Assembly: GCA_041742355.1 (NCBI GenBank)
Contig: JBGSIV010000077.1
Location: forward strand, 1 to 48,121
Direction: 5' to 3'
From: Candidatus Zixiibacteriota bacterium
GTDB taxonomy: Bacteria > Zixibacteria > MSB-5A5 > GN15 > FEB-12
Length of the DNA stretch: 48,121 nucleotides
The notes under the pieces were generated by a model. That model had not been told where the DNA came from and searched no databases. It worked only from the letters and a program-made list of their open reading frames with translations. Shown one piece after another: positions 1-48,121 of the stretch. The position numbers were made by a program, and so were the translations under genes. Within the stretch, counting starts at the first letter, position 1, and each line of letters begins with the position of its first letter.

Positions 1-2754
<2,754 letters not shown>

Positions 2755-2853
2755 AAAAGCCTTACCTAAGAGCATCCATTTGTCACCTTACGTGACACAG
2801 CCAATTGGAAGATACGTTTTTTCCGTATCAACCCGGGTCGTCAAATCTATGAA

Positions 2854-2866
2854 GTTGTCAAAGAGC
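2854..2866 (-). promoter_or_regulatory. boxA antitermination site in the 16S-23S spacer
   Basis: Minus strand TGCTCTTTGACAAC, matching the rrn boxA consensus, between tRNA-Ala and 23S. Confidence 0.8.
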
Positions 2867-2924
2867 AGGTTGCCCTGGAGGGCAACTTATCTAATACAAA
2901 ACAAGAATTCGTAAGTTCCAAAAT

Positions 2925-2997
2925 TGGAGATGACCGGGATCGAACCGGCGACCTGTGGCTTGCAAAGCCACCGCTCTCCCAACTGAGCTACATCCCC
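2925..2997 (-). tRNA. tRNA-Ala(TGC)
   Basis: GGGGATGTAGCTCAGTTGGGAGAGCG-GTGGC-TTTGCAA-GCCAC-AGGTCGCCGGTTCGATCCCGGTCATCTCCA folds as a cloverleaf with anticodon TGC. CCA is not encoded. Confidence 0.97.
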
Positions 2998-3022
2998 GAA
3001 ACCAAAACCGTTTTTTTCACAC

Positions 3023-3096
3023 TGGGCCTAGATGGAGTTGAACCATCGACCTCGCGCTTATCAGGCGCGCGCTCTAACCAACTGAGCTATAGGCCC
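3023..3096 (-). tRNA. tRNA-Ile(GAT)
   Basis: GGGCCTATAGCTCAGTTGGTTAGAGCG-CGCGC-CTGATAA-GCGCG-AGGTCGATGGTTCAACTCCATCTAGGCCCA, anticodon GAT. CCA is not encoded. Confidence 0.97.
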
Positions 3097-3236
3097 GTTA
3101 AGCTCGTTTACGCGCCTGATGGCGACGTTGTTTTATCACGTAAATAGTCATCGGGAAGTCCAGGAGGGGTAGACGGCGTGCCGGTCGACCTTGGAACGGC
3201 ACCGCGCTTGCGCGCGACGCTCGCACCATTCTCCTT

Positions 3237-4789
<1,553 letters not shown>

Positions 4790-43989: not shown

Positions 43990-45285
43990 ATGAAACCGCG
44001 CACTGCAGCTCTGGTCATCCTCGGCTTGTGTATTCTGGCTGCCTCGCCCAGGGCCTCCTCCCCACTGGACAACGCCCGGCCGCTGTCCCTCAATCTTGAA
44101 AATGTGCCGATTACGACTGTCCTGGACATGGTCGCGGCGCAGAACGGGTTGAACATTGTCGTTTCCGGCACCGTCGTCGGGTCGGTGACTCTGCGTCTGG
44201 AAGATGTGGCGCTCCCGGCGGCCCTCGATGCGATCCTCCTCCCGATGGGTTTCAACTATTACATTCGGAACGGTGTGATTGTCGTGAAGCCGTTCGAGAT
44301 GTATTCCCCGGGCGAGCTTGAAACCCGGAGCGTGGAGCTGCGGTACATCGACCCCGTGACCGTGCAGAAAGCGCTGAGTCCCCTGAAATCGACGCAGGGG
44401 CAGGTGATCATCCTGGACAAGATAGCCGGCGCCGAGGGGGGCACAGTCAGTCCTCGCGAGACCTACAAGCCGAATCGGCTTCTGCTGGCCGACTTCCCGG
44501 CGGTTGTGGCGCAGATGCTCGAAGTAATTGCGGACATCGACCAACCGGAGCAGGTCATCTCCATTGAAGCCCGCATTATCGAGACGAATGTCGATGACGC
44601 CAGCCGCGTGGGATTCTCGTGGCCAACCGCTTTCGGCACGGTATTGGGCGGCGGCGGCACCGACTCAGGCAGCACGGGCGGCTCGGACGAAGTCGACGGT
44701 GCCGCGGTGTGGAATCCCAACAACGGCGATTTTGCGTGGGCCAAACTCACGGTTCAGCAGGTCAACCTGGTTCTTCACCTGCTTGAGGAGAAAGGCGACA
44801 GCAAGTTGATCTCGGACCCACGGGTGACGACTCTGGCCAACCACGAGGCGGAAATCAAGATTCAGACGGTCATACCGATCGCCACGATCAACCGGTTCAC
44901 CGAGGGGGCGGCGACGCAGGATATCGTGACTTTTCAGGATCAGGAGGTCGGGATCTCGTTGCGCGTTACGCCGAGGATAAATGAAGCGGGCAGGATCACG
45001 ATGGATGTCATGCCGGTAGTCGAGGACATCATCGGCTTCGCCGGACCCGCCGACAACCAGAAGCCGATCACGACCGAACGGTCGGTTCGCACGACTATCA
45101 CGGTCGCCGACGGCGAGACGGTCGCTTTGGGCGGGTTGCGCAAGGAGGACGAAATCGAGAGCGTCCGGCGCGTGCCGCTCCTCGGTCACATACCGCTTCT
45201 CGGGAGGCTGCTCTTCACCAATACCTCAAAGGAGAAGAAAGCAACCGACCTGATTATCCTGATAACGCCACGCGTCCTTCCCTGA
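43990..45285 (+). CDS. pilQ: Secretin (PilQ/GspD/MshL family)
   Basis: Signal peptide, N0 'LSLNLENVPI..VL..VA...GLNIVV', 'Q.ISIEARIIE', 'LISDPRVTTLAN', 'VGISLRVTPRI', 'GETVALGGL', 'VPLLGHIPLLG.LF', 'LIILITPRV'. Confidence 0.93.
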   Translation: MKPRTAALVILGLCILAASPRASSPLDNARPLSLNLENVPITTVLDMVAAQNGLNIVVSGTVVGSVTLRLEDVALPAALDAILLPMGFNYYIRNGVIVVKPFEMYSPGELETRSVELRYIDPVTVQKALSPLKSTQGQVIILDKIAGAEGGTVSPRETYKPNRLLLADFPAVVAQMLEVIADIDQPEQVISIEARIIETNVDDASRVGFSWPTAFGTVLGGGGTDSGSTGGSDEVDGAAVWNPNNGDFAWAKLTVQQVNLVLHLLEEKGDSKLISDPRVTTLANHEAEIKIQTVIPIATINRFTEGAATQDIVTFQDQEVGISLRVTPRINEAGRITMDVMPVVEDIIGFAGPADNQKPITTERSVRTTITVADGETVALGGLRKEDEIESVRRVPLLGHIPLLGRLLFTNTSKEKKATDLIILITPRVLP

Positions 45286-45736
45286 TCGCCTGCCTCCGGT
45301 CCACGAGGAACCGTCGCGACCGGGAAAAGAGCAGCTGCAGCATCAGGAGTAGCAGTCCGAGGTCGCGAATGAGCGTGTTGACAGCTTCATCGCCGGCGCC
45401 CTGCGACGCCTTGAAGCAACCGCATTCGATATCCAGACCGCGGGCCGCGGCCGATGCCAGCGCCACAATGAACACCAGGTTCATGAGCAACACCGACCAG
45501 ACCGCCCCCCGGTAGAATACCCCGAAAATCAGGAACAGCCCGGCCAGCATCTCCCACCAGGGGAGAATCAGGGCCACGAGGTTGATCAGGCTGACCGGCG
45601 TCAGGTGATAGTACCAGATCGACTTGGCAAAGTCGCCCGGCTCAAGGATTTTGTAGTAAGCGGCGTAGATAAAGACGGCTCCCACAAAGAGGCGCACGGT
45701 CAGGGTCAGGTAGTCGTTGTCGATTATTCGCCGCAT
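45254..45736 (-). CDS. DoxX/MauE family membrane protein
   Basis: 'RLFVGAVFIYAA..KI..P..F...I..Y', 'LP.WE..AGL.LIFG', 'RGLDIECGCF', 'L.RD'. Start MRRII at 45736. Confidence 0.88.
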   Translation of the reverse strand: MRRIIDNDYLTLTVRLFVGAVFIYAAYYKILEPGDFAKSIWYYHLTPVSLINLVALILPWWEMLAGLFLIFGVFYRGAVWSVLLMNLVFIVALASAAARGLDIECGCFKASQGAGDEAVNTLIRDLGLLLLMLQLLFSRSRRFLVDRRQAIREGRVALSG

Positions 45737-46242
45737 GCTTCTCTCCGTTCCATCTGCAGGCTGTTCTTCTCCCACTCCCTCGCTCCGCCGAAGAAAATCA
45801 TGACGTTGGTGTATCCGATGGCTTGGAGGTTCCGGGCCAGGTGCAGGGAGAGGTCGCACTCCTCGCCGGAGCAGAAGGTAATCAGTCGGGTGTCCGGGGA
45901 GGCACCGCCGAATGCGGAGTCAAAGTACGGGCCAAGGTCTCCCTCGGGGAGCATCTCAAACGGGATGTTGATCGAGCCGGGGATTGTCCCACAGACGAAT
46001 TCGGAGGGGTTGCGGGCATCGATGAAGATAACGCCTCCGCCGGTGAATTCGACATGGGCGACATCAAGGCCGATGAAGGGCGGGTCGCCCGGATCGGCCG
46101 CCGGGGGGATCACCGGGCCGTCGCCCGAGGATAACTCCCGCCAATCGCCGATGTAGGGTATGGCGTTGGGGGAAACGAGGTTGATACCGAGTCCGAAGAC
46201 CGCCGCGAGGCCGAGGATGATGAGGAGTTGTCGAAGGGCCAT
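45724..46242 (-). CDS. Rhodanese-like domain protein with an N-terminal membrane anchor
   Basis: 'FIDARNP.EF..GTIPGSINIP', active-site loop 'FCSGEECDLS', 'GY.NV..F.GG..EW'. Paired with the DoxX/MauE gene. Confidence 0.9.
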   Translation of the reverse strand: MALRQLLIILGLAAVFGLGINLVSPNAIPYIGDWRELSSGDGPVIPPAADPGDPPFIGLDVAHVEFTGGGVIFIDARNPSEFVCGTIPGSINIPFEMLPEGDLGPYFDSAFGGASPDTRLITFCSGEECDLSLHLARNLQAIGYTNVMIFFGGAREWEKNSLQMERREACGE

Positions 46243-46568
46243 GGGTGTCCGTGGGTTTAAGGGTTCGCACCTTTGGTCTGTTATACCAGTAGGCCTGCCA
46301 AAGGTTTAGCGAAAAGTGCCGGACCGGAGGAGGACTGTCCTGGTTGCTGTTTCTCAGGCCGAAAAAAGGTACCGGCGACGCTGGTGTCAACCAATATTCG
46401 CGGCAGGCCGTCATACCTCTCGTAGACGATCGGAGCGGGCCCGACATGACGGATTAAGTGAGGCGAGGGTAAAAATTGGCAACTGGACGGTAACTGGTAT
46501 GCCTGGACGATGGCGTCGGCGAGTACGGAACGTTAAAGTGTTGGTTGAGGGGATGTGTGGAACTCCAT

Positions 46569-46599
46569 AGAAACAGGGCCAGTCAGTAGACTGGCCCTG
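46569..46599 (-). terminator. Intrinsic terminator
   Basis: 11-bp stem CAGGGCCAGTC-TACT-GACTGGCCCTG followed by TTTCT on the minus strand. Confidence 0.7.
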
Positions 46600-47035
46600 A
46601 GTATTCGGTAGTTCGCAGTCGGGCGGCTCCACCAGGCAACCGCCGGGAAATCATATCTCGCTCAATGGGTTTGCTCGGCGCCGCGGACGTATCGGGACGA
46701 TACCAACATATAATGTCCGCGAAGAATTTGACCCACTACAGCCGAGAACTTGGTCGGTGACAGGACCTGCAGGCCGTAGGGGTGCCAGCAATCCTTTTCT
46801 CCCAGAGATGCGAACCCTTTGTCATCTTTGCTCTTCGGCATGAAGCAACTCCCTATCTGCTCGTGAAGTCTGATATCCCCCTCTTCGGTTTCTGGCACAT
46901 AGCTATAGATAACCGGGGATAGCGGTGAAGCTATAGGGATTGGTGGATTTCTGAGATATCACCTCCTAACGACTGCGACGCCCCTTGGCCATTACTACCT
47001 ATTCCGACCTCCAAAGGTGCTGACGGACTCAGCAA
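46569..47035 (-). ncRNA. Candidate large structured non-coding RNA (unassigned family)
   Basis: Multiple nested long-range complementary segments close a ~400-nt domain that ends directly at a terminator (detailed in findings). The 5' end is uncertain. Confidence 0.55.
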
Positions 47036-47074
47036 ACGTATCGCCCCTCACATAGTAGACTTTTGACATACAGG

Positions 47075-47389
47075 TCAGGTCAGCAGCATCCTGTGTAATT
47101 TTTTGATCGCACGGTGTTTATAAATATTCACCACCTGTTGGGTAACCCCTAACAGATCGGCTATCTCGCGCTCGGTCTTCCCTATCAAGTAGTACTTGAT
47201 TACTTCTTTTTGGCGCTTTGACAGGGAGTGATTTATGTGCCATTTGAGTTTGCCGCGAATCCTGTCGAGGTGTTGCCGGATGAGGCCATCGGATTCCTCC
47301 AGGTGATAGGGCGACTGCTCGTTGGCGAACGACTCGAGGAAGAGTCGGTCGACCGCCACTTCGGCAAAGTCGGACTCGCGCGCGGGCAC
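47075..47389 (-). CDS. Stand-alone sigma70 region-4-like HTH protein
   Basis: 'SLSKRQKEVIKYYLIGKTEREIADLLGVTQQVVNIYKHRAIKKL' fits the sigma region 4 HTH pattern. 104 aa with no region 2. SD-like AAAGGGG before the GTG. Confidence 0.85.
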   Translation of the reverse strand: MPARESDFAEVAVDRLFLESFANEQSPYHLEESDGLIRQHLDRIRGKLKWHINHSLSKRQKEVIKYYLIGKTEREIADLLGVTQQVVNIYKHRAIKKLHRMLLT

Positions 47390-47408
47390 ACGTTCCCCCT
47401 TTCCGGTA

Positions 47409-47966
47409 TCAGAACTCCAGCTTGTTCTCCGAGCGGATGCGGTTGAGGTCGGCGACGGAGATATTGAACTTCTTCGCCGTTTCCTCCCGGATTTCGTTGA
47501 CCGCCACAGTCAGTTCGTACGATGACAGGTCTTTCGGGAGACTGCGGTAACGCTGATTGTAGTACGCCAGGACCTGATCGTTGAGTGATTGCGTTTTGGC
47601 AGCGGTCGAGGCCGGAGCGGTGCCGGAGCCTGATTTGGGCTTGGCGGCGGCTTTGGCGGCCTTGAGCTGCTTTGTCATCTGGGCCAGCTGCAGTTGCAGG
47701 GTGTCGATTGTGCCCGACAGGGAGTCGACCGTGATCCGGTAGGTCTGATCGCGGCGCAGGAGGCTGTCACCGAAAGCCAACTCCTTGCCGGCCATCTGGT
47801 CACGGAGGGAGTCGGCTTCAAGCTGGGCAGCGTAGACCTCGCCAACCGAAGACTGGCGGCCGGCCTCAAAGGAGCCCGCGAGGCGATCCTGCTGGCGGAC
47901 AACCTGAAGGTAGCCAACAAGAACAACCACGGCGAGCAGGAATATGGCGAGCAGGGCTTTTTTCAT
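47409..47966 (-). CDS. Hypothetical membrane-anchored coiled-coil protein
   Basis: MKK plus N-terminal TM, heptad coiled coil, Ala/Lys/Ser linker, small C-terminal helical domain. Only 19 nt separate it from the sigma4 gene. Confidence 0.8.
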   Translation of the reverse strand: MKKALLAIFLLAVVVLVGYLQVVRQQDRLAGSFEAGRQSSVGEVYAAQLEADSLRDQMAGKELAFGDSLLRRDQTYRITVDSLSGTIDTLQLQLAQMTKQLKAAKAAAKPKSGSGTAPASTAAKTQSLNDQVLAYYNQRYRSLPKDLSSYELTVAVNEIREETAKKFNISVADLNRIRSENKLEF

Positions 47967-47993
47967 AATGATCCGTCAGTGAAGACTGGTCGC

Positions 47994-48022
47994 ACAATAT
48001 TGGGGCCGCGAAAGGGTGTCAA
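47994..48022 (-). promoter_or_regulatory. sigma70-like promoter for the membrane protein / sigma4 / RNA unit
   Basis: TTGACA-N17-TATTGT about 27 nt upstream of the ATG at 47966. Confidence 0.7.
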
Positions 48023-48070
48023 GTTTGAACTTTCCGGGGGGTTGGCCCCGGATTGGGTTCGTTTGATACT

Positions 48071-48092
48071 CGGCCGATGTGGACATCGGCCG
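48071..48092. repeat. 10-bp perfect inverted repeat
   Basis: CGGCCGATGT-gg-ACATCGGCCG. GTGGACATC recurs about 29 nt downstream. Confidence 0.75.
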
Positions 48093-48121
48093 CGCACATG
48101 TACGGCCGTGGACATCCGCAG

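Follow-up and report, generated by a model that had tools for sequence, protein, structure and literature searches.

A stretch of DNA of 48,121 nucleotides (nt) from a Candidatus Zixiibacteriota bacterium (contig JBGSIV010000077.1 of assembly GCA_041742355.1, positions 1 to 48,121; hereafter the window) contains a minus-strand locus, lying between the gene for a 104-residue helix-turn-helix (HTH) protein (47389-47075) and an intrinsic terminator (46599-46574), which an earlier note made from the sequence alone had taken for a large undescribed non-coding RNA. The locus is interpreted here, as the probable reading, as a short monocistronic messenger RNA (mRNA) of Zixibacteria, about 460 nt in length, which encodes a conserved protein of 59 residues and bears a leader of about 205 nt that controls its translation. 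The RNA is not non-coding, because the open reading frame (ORF) within it is conserved, with the third codon position the most variable and a low ratio of non-synonymous to synonymous substitution (dN/dS). The features on which this interpretation rests, all on the minus strand, are as follows.

46574-47045: putative transcript of ~440-470 nt, with a 5' untranslated region (UTR) of ~205 nt, an ORF of 180 nt, and a 3' UTR plus terminator
46662-46841: ORF, from ATG at 46841 to TGA at 46662, 59 amino acids (aa) and a stop, beginning MPKSKDDKGFASLGEKDCWHPYGLQVLSPTKF
46849-46853: Shine-Dalgarno sequence GGGAG, 7 nt before the ATG
46574-46599: intrinsic terminator, 11 pairs (8 of them G-C), loop of 4, tail TTTCTATGGA

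The open reading frame and its transcript

Matches to the locus at the DNA level were obtained in 19 of 61 related genomes, and outside the genus these were confined to query positions 225-371, that is, to the ORF; that this is the sole DNA conservation across genera argues against a non-coding role. By tblastn and ORF extension the reading frame was recovered in all 19 of the DNA-matched loci, and a scan of species genomes added 74 loci, every one of which has it. Each of the 93 related Zixibacteria loci has an ATG preceded by a purine-rich Shine-Dalgarno tract, and the frame runs to a stop in 91 of them, giving lengths of 56-74 aa, the other two being cut by a contig end. Nine residues are invariant among 80 distinct sequences of the small protein. 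The entropies at the three codon positions are 0.80, 0.65 and 1.47, respectively, and the median dN/dS over 380 pairs is 0.19, with values below 0.5 in 99% of pairs. Conservation along the codons of an internal ORF, which the earlier note had itself named as telling against a non-coding RNA, is therefore what the comparison reveals, and that part of its proposal has to be given up.

Scanning the 59-aa protein against Pfam and NCBIfam gave no matches in either; a Foldseek search of its predicted model (pLDDT, the predicted local distance difference test score, 73.5) against the PDB gave none at E<=0.001, and a search of the ESM Atlas gave no usable match. A metagenome scan using a single protein sequence found only three loci. 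A profile search reached 234 clusters of small proteins (E<=1e-3); of the relatives so found, 31 small ones were scanned, and not one belongs to a Pfam family. Judged by its sequence, the protein represents an uncharacterised, strongly conserved small-protein family without a Pfam family. It is polar, with a basic N-terminus, and has two short helices in the predicted model; no long hydrophobic span was seen in either sequence or model, no dedicated transmembrane predictor having been used. Complex prediction for the HTH protein and the small protein together gave no verdict (score 0.02). The wider family shares the core K-D/T-C-W-H-x-Y-G/S-L-Q-x-L-x-P-x-K-F-x-x-V-V-x-K-I-L, and some of its members carry long N- or C-terminal extensions. 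Loci L075 and L090-L093 have no leader motif, and the N-termini of L090-L093 also diverge. The assemblies with L091 and L093 each contain a canonical copy as well, and these second copies are probably paralogues under different control.

Part of the stretch was detected by a word index in ten RNA-library runs. Contigs from four of these runs, representing three studies, were placed on the interval 46400-47500, and within it they are confined to 46596-47037.

Run X4: 46596-47034, a single whole contig of 439 nt
Run X6: 46647-47037, a single contig of 391 nt
Run X10: 46750-47037 (288 nt) and 46624-46779 (156 nt), two contigs
Run X3: 46619-47034, four pieces

No RNA contig was found on 47066-47500, the upstream side with the HTH gene, or on 46400-46584, although such absence is not proof of silence. 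The upstream ends of the contigs all fall at 47034-47037, without loose ends, and lie 15-20 nt downstream of a -10-like TACTAT (47057-47052). A separate RNA of ~440-470 nt is likely, because the contigs of three studies are confined in this way, and the hint agrees with the minus-strand terminator and with the position of TACTAT, from which a 5' end near 47045 would be expected. Likewise, a stem followed by a T-run occurs 40-110 nt 3' of the stop in all 18 related loci for which downstream sequence is available. The earlier note had proposed a discrete RNA of about this size, with a terminator after the closing helix, and both points are supported. Because the transcript assembles from environmental metatranscriptomes and its neighbours do not, the small-protein gene is probably highly expressed. 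Among DNA runs, two contain 1.00 and 0.83, respectively, of the words sampled over the entire stretch (word index).

By our own arithmetic, 16 of the 19 variable ORF sites among the RNA contigs are at third codon positions. The contig from X6 is a variant with 12 differences from the window, all of them in the ORF and ten at third codon positions, and with none in its 196 nt of 5' UTR. Given that between species the 5' UTR is conserved no better than synonymous sites (see below), this pattern could reflect a recombination mosaic or recent constraint.

The Shine-Dalgarno stem and the conserved blocks of the leader

The following elements of the leader, all on the minus strand, are referred to in this section.

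46850-46939: Domain 1, which sequesters the Shine-Dalgarno sequence, from minimum-free-energy folds and comparison
46939-46933 with 46856-46850: outer stem of Domain 1, TCCCTAT/ATAGGGA, pairing UCCCUAU with the Shine-Dalgarno sequence
46921-46915 with 46880-46874: inner stem of Domain 1, TATCCCC/GGGGATA
46957-46967: GGAGGTG tract, AGGAGGUGAUA; AGGAGGUGAU is the complement of the 16S 3' end, and no start codon follows
47018-47034: 5' hairpin TGCTGA (47034)/TCAGCA (47023), followed by the conserved block AGCACCTTT
47013-47021: pyrimidine block AGCACCUUU, which resembles the 16S 3' end

The Shine-Dalgarno sequence (AUAGGGAG) is paired with the upstream UCCCUAU in a stem closed over an inner hairpin. 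The leader block AUCCCUAU is complementary to it, and in a set of 26 diverse leaders most minimum-free-energy folds contain the stem over its inner hairpin. In most loci, 22-33 nt separate the 5' strand from the preceding GGAGGTG, and 2-10 nt separate the end of the 3' strand from the ATG. The stem has lineage variants, namely GCATCTCT/GGAGATGC, TCCTTATTTT/AAAATAAGGA and TTTATATTCT/AGAATATAGG. The best helix between the two strands scored 7.08 for native combinations as against 6.31 for strands exchanged between loci, and none of 20000 permutations was as high. The stem is extended by complementary sequence that differs between lineages, and over the variable 14 nt inside the core this extension behaved likewise, at 4.82 native versus 4.08 cross-locus, and -6.93 versus -5.08 kcal/mol (0 of 20000); measured against composition-preserving shuffles it gave z = 0.62 (p 4e-4), and for energy z = -0.87 (p 1.5e-5). 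Core pairing amounts to 80-100% in a fixed-column, sequence-based alignment, and RNAalifold applied to sub-groups recovered the stem in four of six. Domain 1, which had been listed only as one of several helices of the supposed non-coding RNA, is thus a conserved stem. On the minus strand CCGAAGAG occurs both at the start of the ORF (AUGCCGAAGAG, 46838-46845) and before the G-run of the inner stem (ACCGAAGAGGGGG, 46881-46888); the repeat may represent an alternative pairing or a duplication.

From the HTH stop to the ATG there is a spacer, 184-248 nt in length in 18 loci, which carries further conserved blocks. In 88 of 93 loci GGAGGTG has a single occurrence, at a distance of 81-135 nt upstream of the ATG. 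The anti-Shine-Dalgarno sequence was read from the 3' end of the window's 16S gene (3239-4789): the 16S 3' end of this organism reads GGATCACCTCCTTTCT (ending GGAUCACCUCCUUUCU). The tract of the window, TTAGGAGGTGATA (UUAGGAGGUGAUA), is complementary to it over 8 contiguous nt, AGGAGGUGAU against AUCACCUCCU, and most relatives read AAGGAGGTGAT (AAGGAGGUGAU), a perfect 11-nt complement of the 16S 3' end. The A/G alternative in GGAGGUG(A/G)UA would preserve pairing with U. The 11-mer AGGAGGTGRTA has only six sites in the 4.37-Mb genome. No conserved start codon or leader peptide follows GGAGGUG in the alignment, and an 8-codon ATG frame present in the window is absent from L002. We infer that GGAGGUG serves as a docking site for the 30S subunit, since it is complementary to the 16S tail and invariant.

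The block AGCACCUUU is present in most leaders, those of distant clades included, 30-75 nt upstream of GGAGGTG; it can pair with GGAGGUG, and is the best upstream partner in only some leaders. Other blocks are AGCACCUU, CCUCACCGCY, the apical GGUAACUAACUUC (in many clades) and GAGGGGGA. Pairing of GGUG with the CACC of CCUCACCGCY is possible in 86-96% of sequences, with a register shifted by three equally good.

Long-range helices, folding energy and neighbouring genes

The remaining structural features and the upstream flank, again on the minus strand, are:

46999-46994 with 46612-46607: closing helix 1, GGTAGT/ACTACC
46978-46970 with 46621-46613: closing helix 2, TCGCAGTCG/CGACTGCGA
46947-46941 with 46634-46628: closing helix 3, TCCACCA/TGGTGGA, not kept in L002 or L004
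46607-46634: the 3' UTR strands of the three closing helices
46666-46735: Domain 2, local hairpins in the coding region, TGGGT/ACCCA and CGCGGAC/GTCCGCG
47052-47072: promoter-like block, TGTATGTCAAA (47072-47062), then -10-like TACTAT (47057-47052)
47075-47389: gene for the 104-aa GerE/LuxR-type HTH protein, sigma-70 region 4-like; context, not part of the RNA

The seven helices of the earlier note are all exact reverse complements at these minus-strand positions, and the smaller items that it listed are present too (GGTT/AACC, GTATCG/CGATAC, TGCTGA/TCAGCA, CCGAAGAG twice, at 46888 and 46838, and CTTCA three times). Its contention that three collinear end-to-end helices are beyond chance also stands: the nested chain of perfect helices from the first 115 nt to the 3' UTR comprises 22 base pairs, which was reached in 2 of 2000 dinucleotide shuffles, and the minimum-free-energy fold includes the long-range helices. 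In L002, of the same genus, helices 1 and 2 are identical to those of the window. In L004, likewise of this genus, helix 1 reads GGTAGC/GCTACC, with one compensatory pair, and the 3' strand of helix 2 (CGGCTGTGA) gives two G-U pairs. Helix 1 is kept in other genera as GGTAGTTTGA/TCAGACTACC (L011) and GGTAGTTT/GAGCTACC (L029). A position-specific test of the closing helices over 66 non-redundant loci gave 6.0 as against 5.49 for cross-locus combinations (p 0.0003). Conservation of the closing helices holds for 1 and 2 within the genus and reaches one or two genera next to it; it fails for helix 3, which is probably due to chance, and across the phylum as a whole (see below).

Domain 2 did not survive as a conserved RNA domain. 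It lies inside the ORF, and has two compensatory pairs in L002 (TGCGGGC/GCCCGCA) and two mismatches in L004; across 77 loci the signal is weak, at 6.4 versus 6.14 (p 0.017; energy p 0.10). The folding energy of the whole transcript is modestly unusual: the 472-nt transcript gave z = -2.45, a value equalled by 1 of 100 shuffles. The comparison with shuffles for which the earlier note had called comes out modestly in favour of structure for that transcript, less so for a 506-nt stretch (z = -1.66, 6 of 100 shuffles as good), and not for the 5' UTR taken alone (see below). As the earlier note had anticipated, no known RNA family was identified: cmscan of 46300-47400 against Rfam gave nothing at the gathering threshold, and at E<=10 only Pseudomon-Rho, on the plus strand, with 17.8 bits against a threshold of 45.

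Directly 3' of the HTH stop, related loci carry the motif TGTATGTYAA-N4-6-TAnTAT. Its occurrence goes with that of the HTH gene, both being present in 71 loci and neither in 17, with the gene only in two and the motif only in none; in ten of the 17 loci without either, TTGACA-N15-19-TAnnnT is found instead. There is no TTGACA -35 box at the promoter-like block of the window. Elsewhere the genome has TGTATGTYAA sites as well, 18 in all, of which the other 17 have no TAnTAT context and are mostly coding-like. It is tempting to suggest that the TGTATGTCAAA/TACTAT block is a special promoter or operator. Because the motif occurs only where a GerE-like gene lies upstream, its distribution points to a regulator that neighbours an operator or promoter of its own. 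The HTH protein itself matches Pfam GerE (2.8e-10) and Sigma70_r4_2 (1.6e-8) and is syntenic in related loci.

Downstream of the terminator (45254-46242, minus strand) lie a rhodanese-domain gene and an overlapping gene for a MauE/DoxX membrane protein, which are syntenic in many relatives, with a TTGACA box after the terminator in several. At the far end of the window (1-4789, minus strand) there is a ribosomal RNA operon comprising 23S (cut by the window end), transfer RNAs at 2925-2997 and 3023-3096, and 16S at 3239-4789.

Interpretation and comparison with known systems

On the proposed mechanism, the stem between the Shine-Dalgarno sequence and UCCCUAU would represent the translational 'off' state. 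GGAGGUG(A/G)UA, lying ~115 nt further upstream, would dock 30S subunits as a standby or enhancer site; alternatively, the GGAGGUG tract might swap partners with the pyrimidine blocks GCACCUU and CCUCACCGC, so that the Shine-Dalgarno sequence opens. In the window's genus and in one next to it, two helices run between leader and 3' UTR just before the terminator; these may hold the RNA closed and stable, as in hok mRNA.

A number of observations weigh against this account. The contigs reveal neither strand nor true RNA ends, so that they are a hint of a transcript rather than a mapping of it, and translation of the ORF is inferred rather than directly observed. The permutation tests of native against cross-locus strands and the tests of the stem extension ignore the relatedness of the loci. 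With the columns of the sequence-based alignment kept fixed, covariation in the P1 stem is not above shuffles (66% of cells paired, 289 of 500 shuffles as high), and RNAalifold on a MAFFT alignment of 48 sequences gave only six pairs, with zero compensatory changes. The 5' UTR alone folds no better than its shuffles (z = +1.17, 174 of 200 as good). Fixed-column counts of GGUGA/UCACC pairs are likewise not above shuffles. GGAGGUG has no constant intramolecular partner, nor is it predicted to be open: in 77 leaders its unpaired probability is 0.27, as against 0.26 for the Shine-Dalgarno sequence and 0.44 over the entire leader. Conservation of the 5' UTR between species of the genus amounts to 67% and 51%, compared with 76% and 54% for third codon positions; the leader overall fares no better than synonymous sites, a pattern which speaks for several short functional blocks and against one large tertiary fold. 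Finally, the closing helices beat their own shuffles (p<=0.05) in seven of 66 loci, where 3.3 are expected, and three of the seven belong to the window's genus. Because so few loci do so, and because the RNAduplex energy of whole 5' UTR against whole 3' UTR is the same for native and cross-locus combinations (-21.42 in both), the 5'/3' closure is real in the window's lineage and is not phylum-wide.

Against this background other explanations have to be weighed. A riboswitch-like or protein-operated leader, in which GGAGGUGRUA, CCUCACCGCY, GGUAACUAACUUC and GAGGGGGA form a pocket or operator that shifts the Shine-Dalgarno stem, and which might bind a metabolite, the small protein itself or the neighbouring HTH protein, is unlikely, and still merits serious attention. 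It would account for the phylum-wide conservation of several blocks in predicted loops or junctions and for the alternative pairings of CACC, with GGUG (in the proportion of sequences given above) or with GUGAGG. It has to contend with the lack of an Rfam family even at E<=10 and of significant covariation defining a pocket, with a block content that varies between clades, and with a gene that gives no hint of a ligand. Rather less probable is a bolder proposal, in which this abundant, phylum-wide RNA of ~460 nt, with its near-invariant complement of the 16S tail placed, without a start codon, ~100 nt upstream of a locked Shine-Dalgarno sequence, senses or captures free 30S subunits, as a ribosome-sensing leader or a dual-function RNA. 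If true, this would establish a previously unseen class of leader that senses ribosomes, or else an RNA of dual function acting also in trans, and the small conserved protein under its control might have a role in translation too. A paper search on Zixibacteria non-coding RNA turned up nothing related. A dual-function RNA in the narrower sense, encoding the small protein and acting in trans on the 30S subunit or other mRNAs by means of tracts that resemble Shine-Dalgarno or anti-Shine-Dalgarno sequences, is slightly more doubtful again. Four RNA runs assembled this RNA and none of its flanking genes within 46400-47500, invariant blocks lie far from the start codon, the whole transcript folds better than most of its shuffles, and such RNAs are already known; yet the conserved blocks are all explicable in cis, and 59 aa exceeds the length of most such peptides, which are usually under 50 aa according to an excerpt of PMC12310071.

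A type I toxin-antitoxin mRNA of the hok or tisB type, which a 5'/3' fold-back and a sequestered Shine-Dalgarno sequence would keep silent until processing activates it, is very improbable in spite of an architecture which the RNA has in common with hok (PMC9841398) and tisB (PMC7708055). The protein is not hydrophobic, having instead a basic N-terminus and two short helices in the model, and the fold-back is not conserved beyond a few genera. Type I toxin genes, unlike this one, are not known to be single-copy and syntenic with purifying selection across a phylum. Nor was a promoter- or terminator-like site seen on the plus strand of 45500-48121, the contigs giving no strand information. Membership of this class is not supported, because the protein is non-hydrophobic, nothing points to an antisense RNA, and the gene occurs as one copy in conserved synteny. 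Finally, the reading of the earlier note, a large non-coding RNA with a fortuitous internal ORF, scarcely deserves credence: the discrete transcript, the long-range helices beyond chance and the lack of an Rfam match all accord with it, but it leaves without explanation the ATG behind a Shine-Dalgarno tract in every locus, the purifying selection with variation concentrated at third codon positions, and the restriction of cross-genus DNA conservation to the ORF.

On the preferred reading as the mRNA of a small protein with a controlling leader, what appeared to be an orphan large non-coding RNA leads to an unannotated small-protein family (the 234 clusters mentioned above) in an uncultured phylum; to an undescribed leader motif which locks the Shine-Dalgarno sequence and in which a conserved complement of the 16S tail stands with no start codon behind it; and, it is likely, to a dedicated promoter block linked to the gene for a GerE-like regulator. 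For RNA discovery it also carries a caution, in that long-range helices and a discrete transcript are compatible with a coding function.

Parts of the locus resemble known systems. The 104-aa neighbour is like the HTH-only regulators of GerE/LuxR type in matching Pfam GerE and Sigma70_r4; it differs in that its tie to TGTATGTCAAA is one of co-occurrence only. In sequestering leaders, such as riboswitches, RNA thermometers and ribosomal-protein operators, an anti-Shine-Dalgarno strand pairs with the Shine-Dalgarno sequence and alternative pairings exist. The Zixibacteria leader likewise has an anti-Shine-Dalgarno strand in a conserved stem and the potential for alternative pairing, but no match to an Rfam family. 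RNAIII is closed by a long-range 5'/3' helix. The dual-function RNAs RNAIII, SgrS, SR1 and AzuCR resemble the present RNA, which is structured, probably abundant and provided with a small ORF; in the Zixibacteria RNA, however, the ORF is the most conserved part.

The tisB mRNA of Escherichia coli has, according to PMC7708055, a ribosome-binding site that is sequestered and, 100 nt before it, a single-stranded standby region. The Zixibacteria leader shares with the +42 form of tisB mRNA a sequestered ribosome-binding site and an upstream element ~100 nt away in a structured leader, an element which in tisB is required. In contrast to the single-stranded tisB standby site, the Zixibacteria element resembles a Shine-Dalgarno sequence in complementing the 16S tail, and it does not come out as open in the predicted folds.

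In overall architecture the closest counterpart appears to be hok mRNA, from the hok/sok system of plasmid R1, in which, according to an excerpt of PMC9841398, a long-distance stem joins the 5' and 3' UTRs and an upstream complementary box sequesters the Shine-Dalgarno sequence. Both are small-protein mRNAs of a few hundred nt with a closing stem between 5' and 3' UTRs (the tac/fbi fold-back in hok) and an upstream box on the Shine-Dalgarno sequence. The Zixibacteria protein differs in being no hydrophobic toxin, and neither an antisense RNA nor an overlapping mok-like frame was seen. Its closing stem stands before an intact terminator and is kept in a few genera only, the hok-like 5'/3' stem being present in the window's genus plus L011 and L029; and the Zixibacteria gene is chromosomal, single-copy and phylum-wide.

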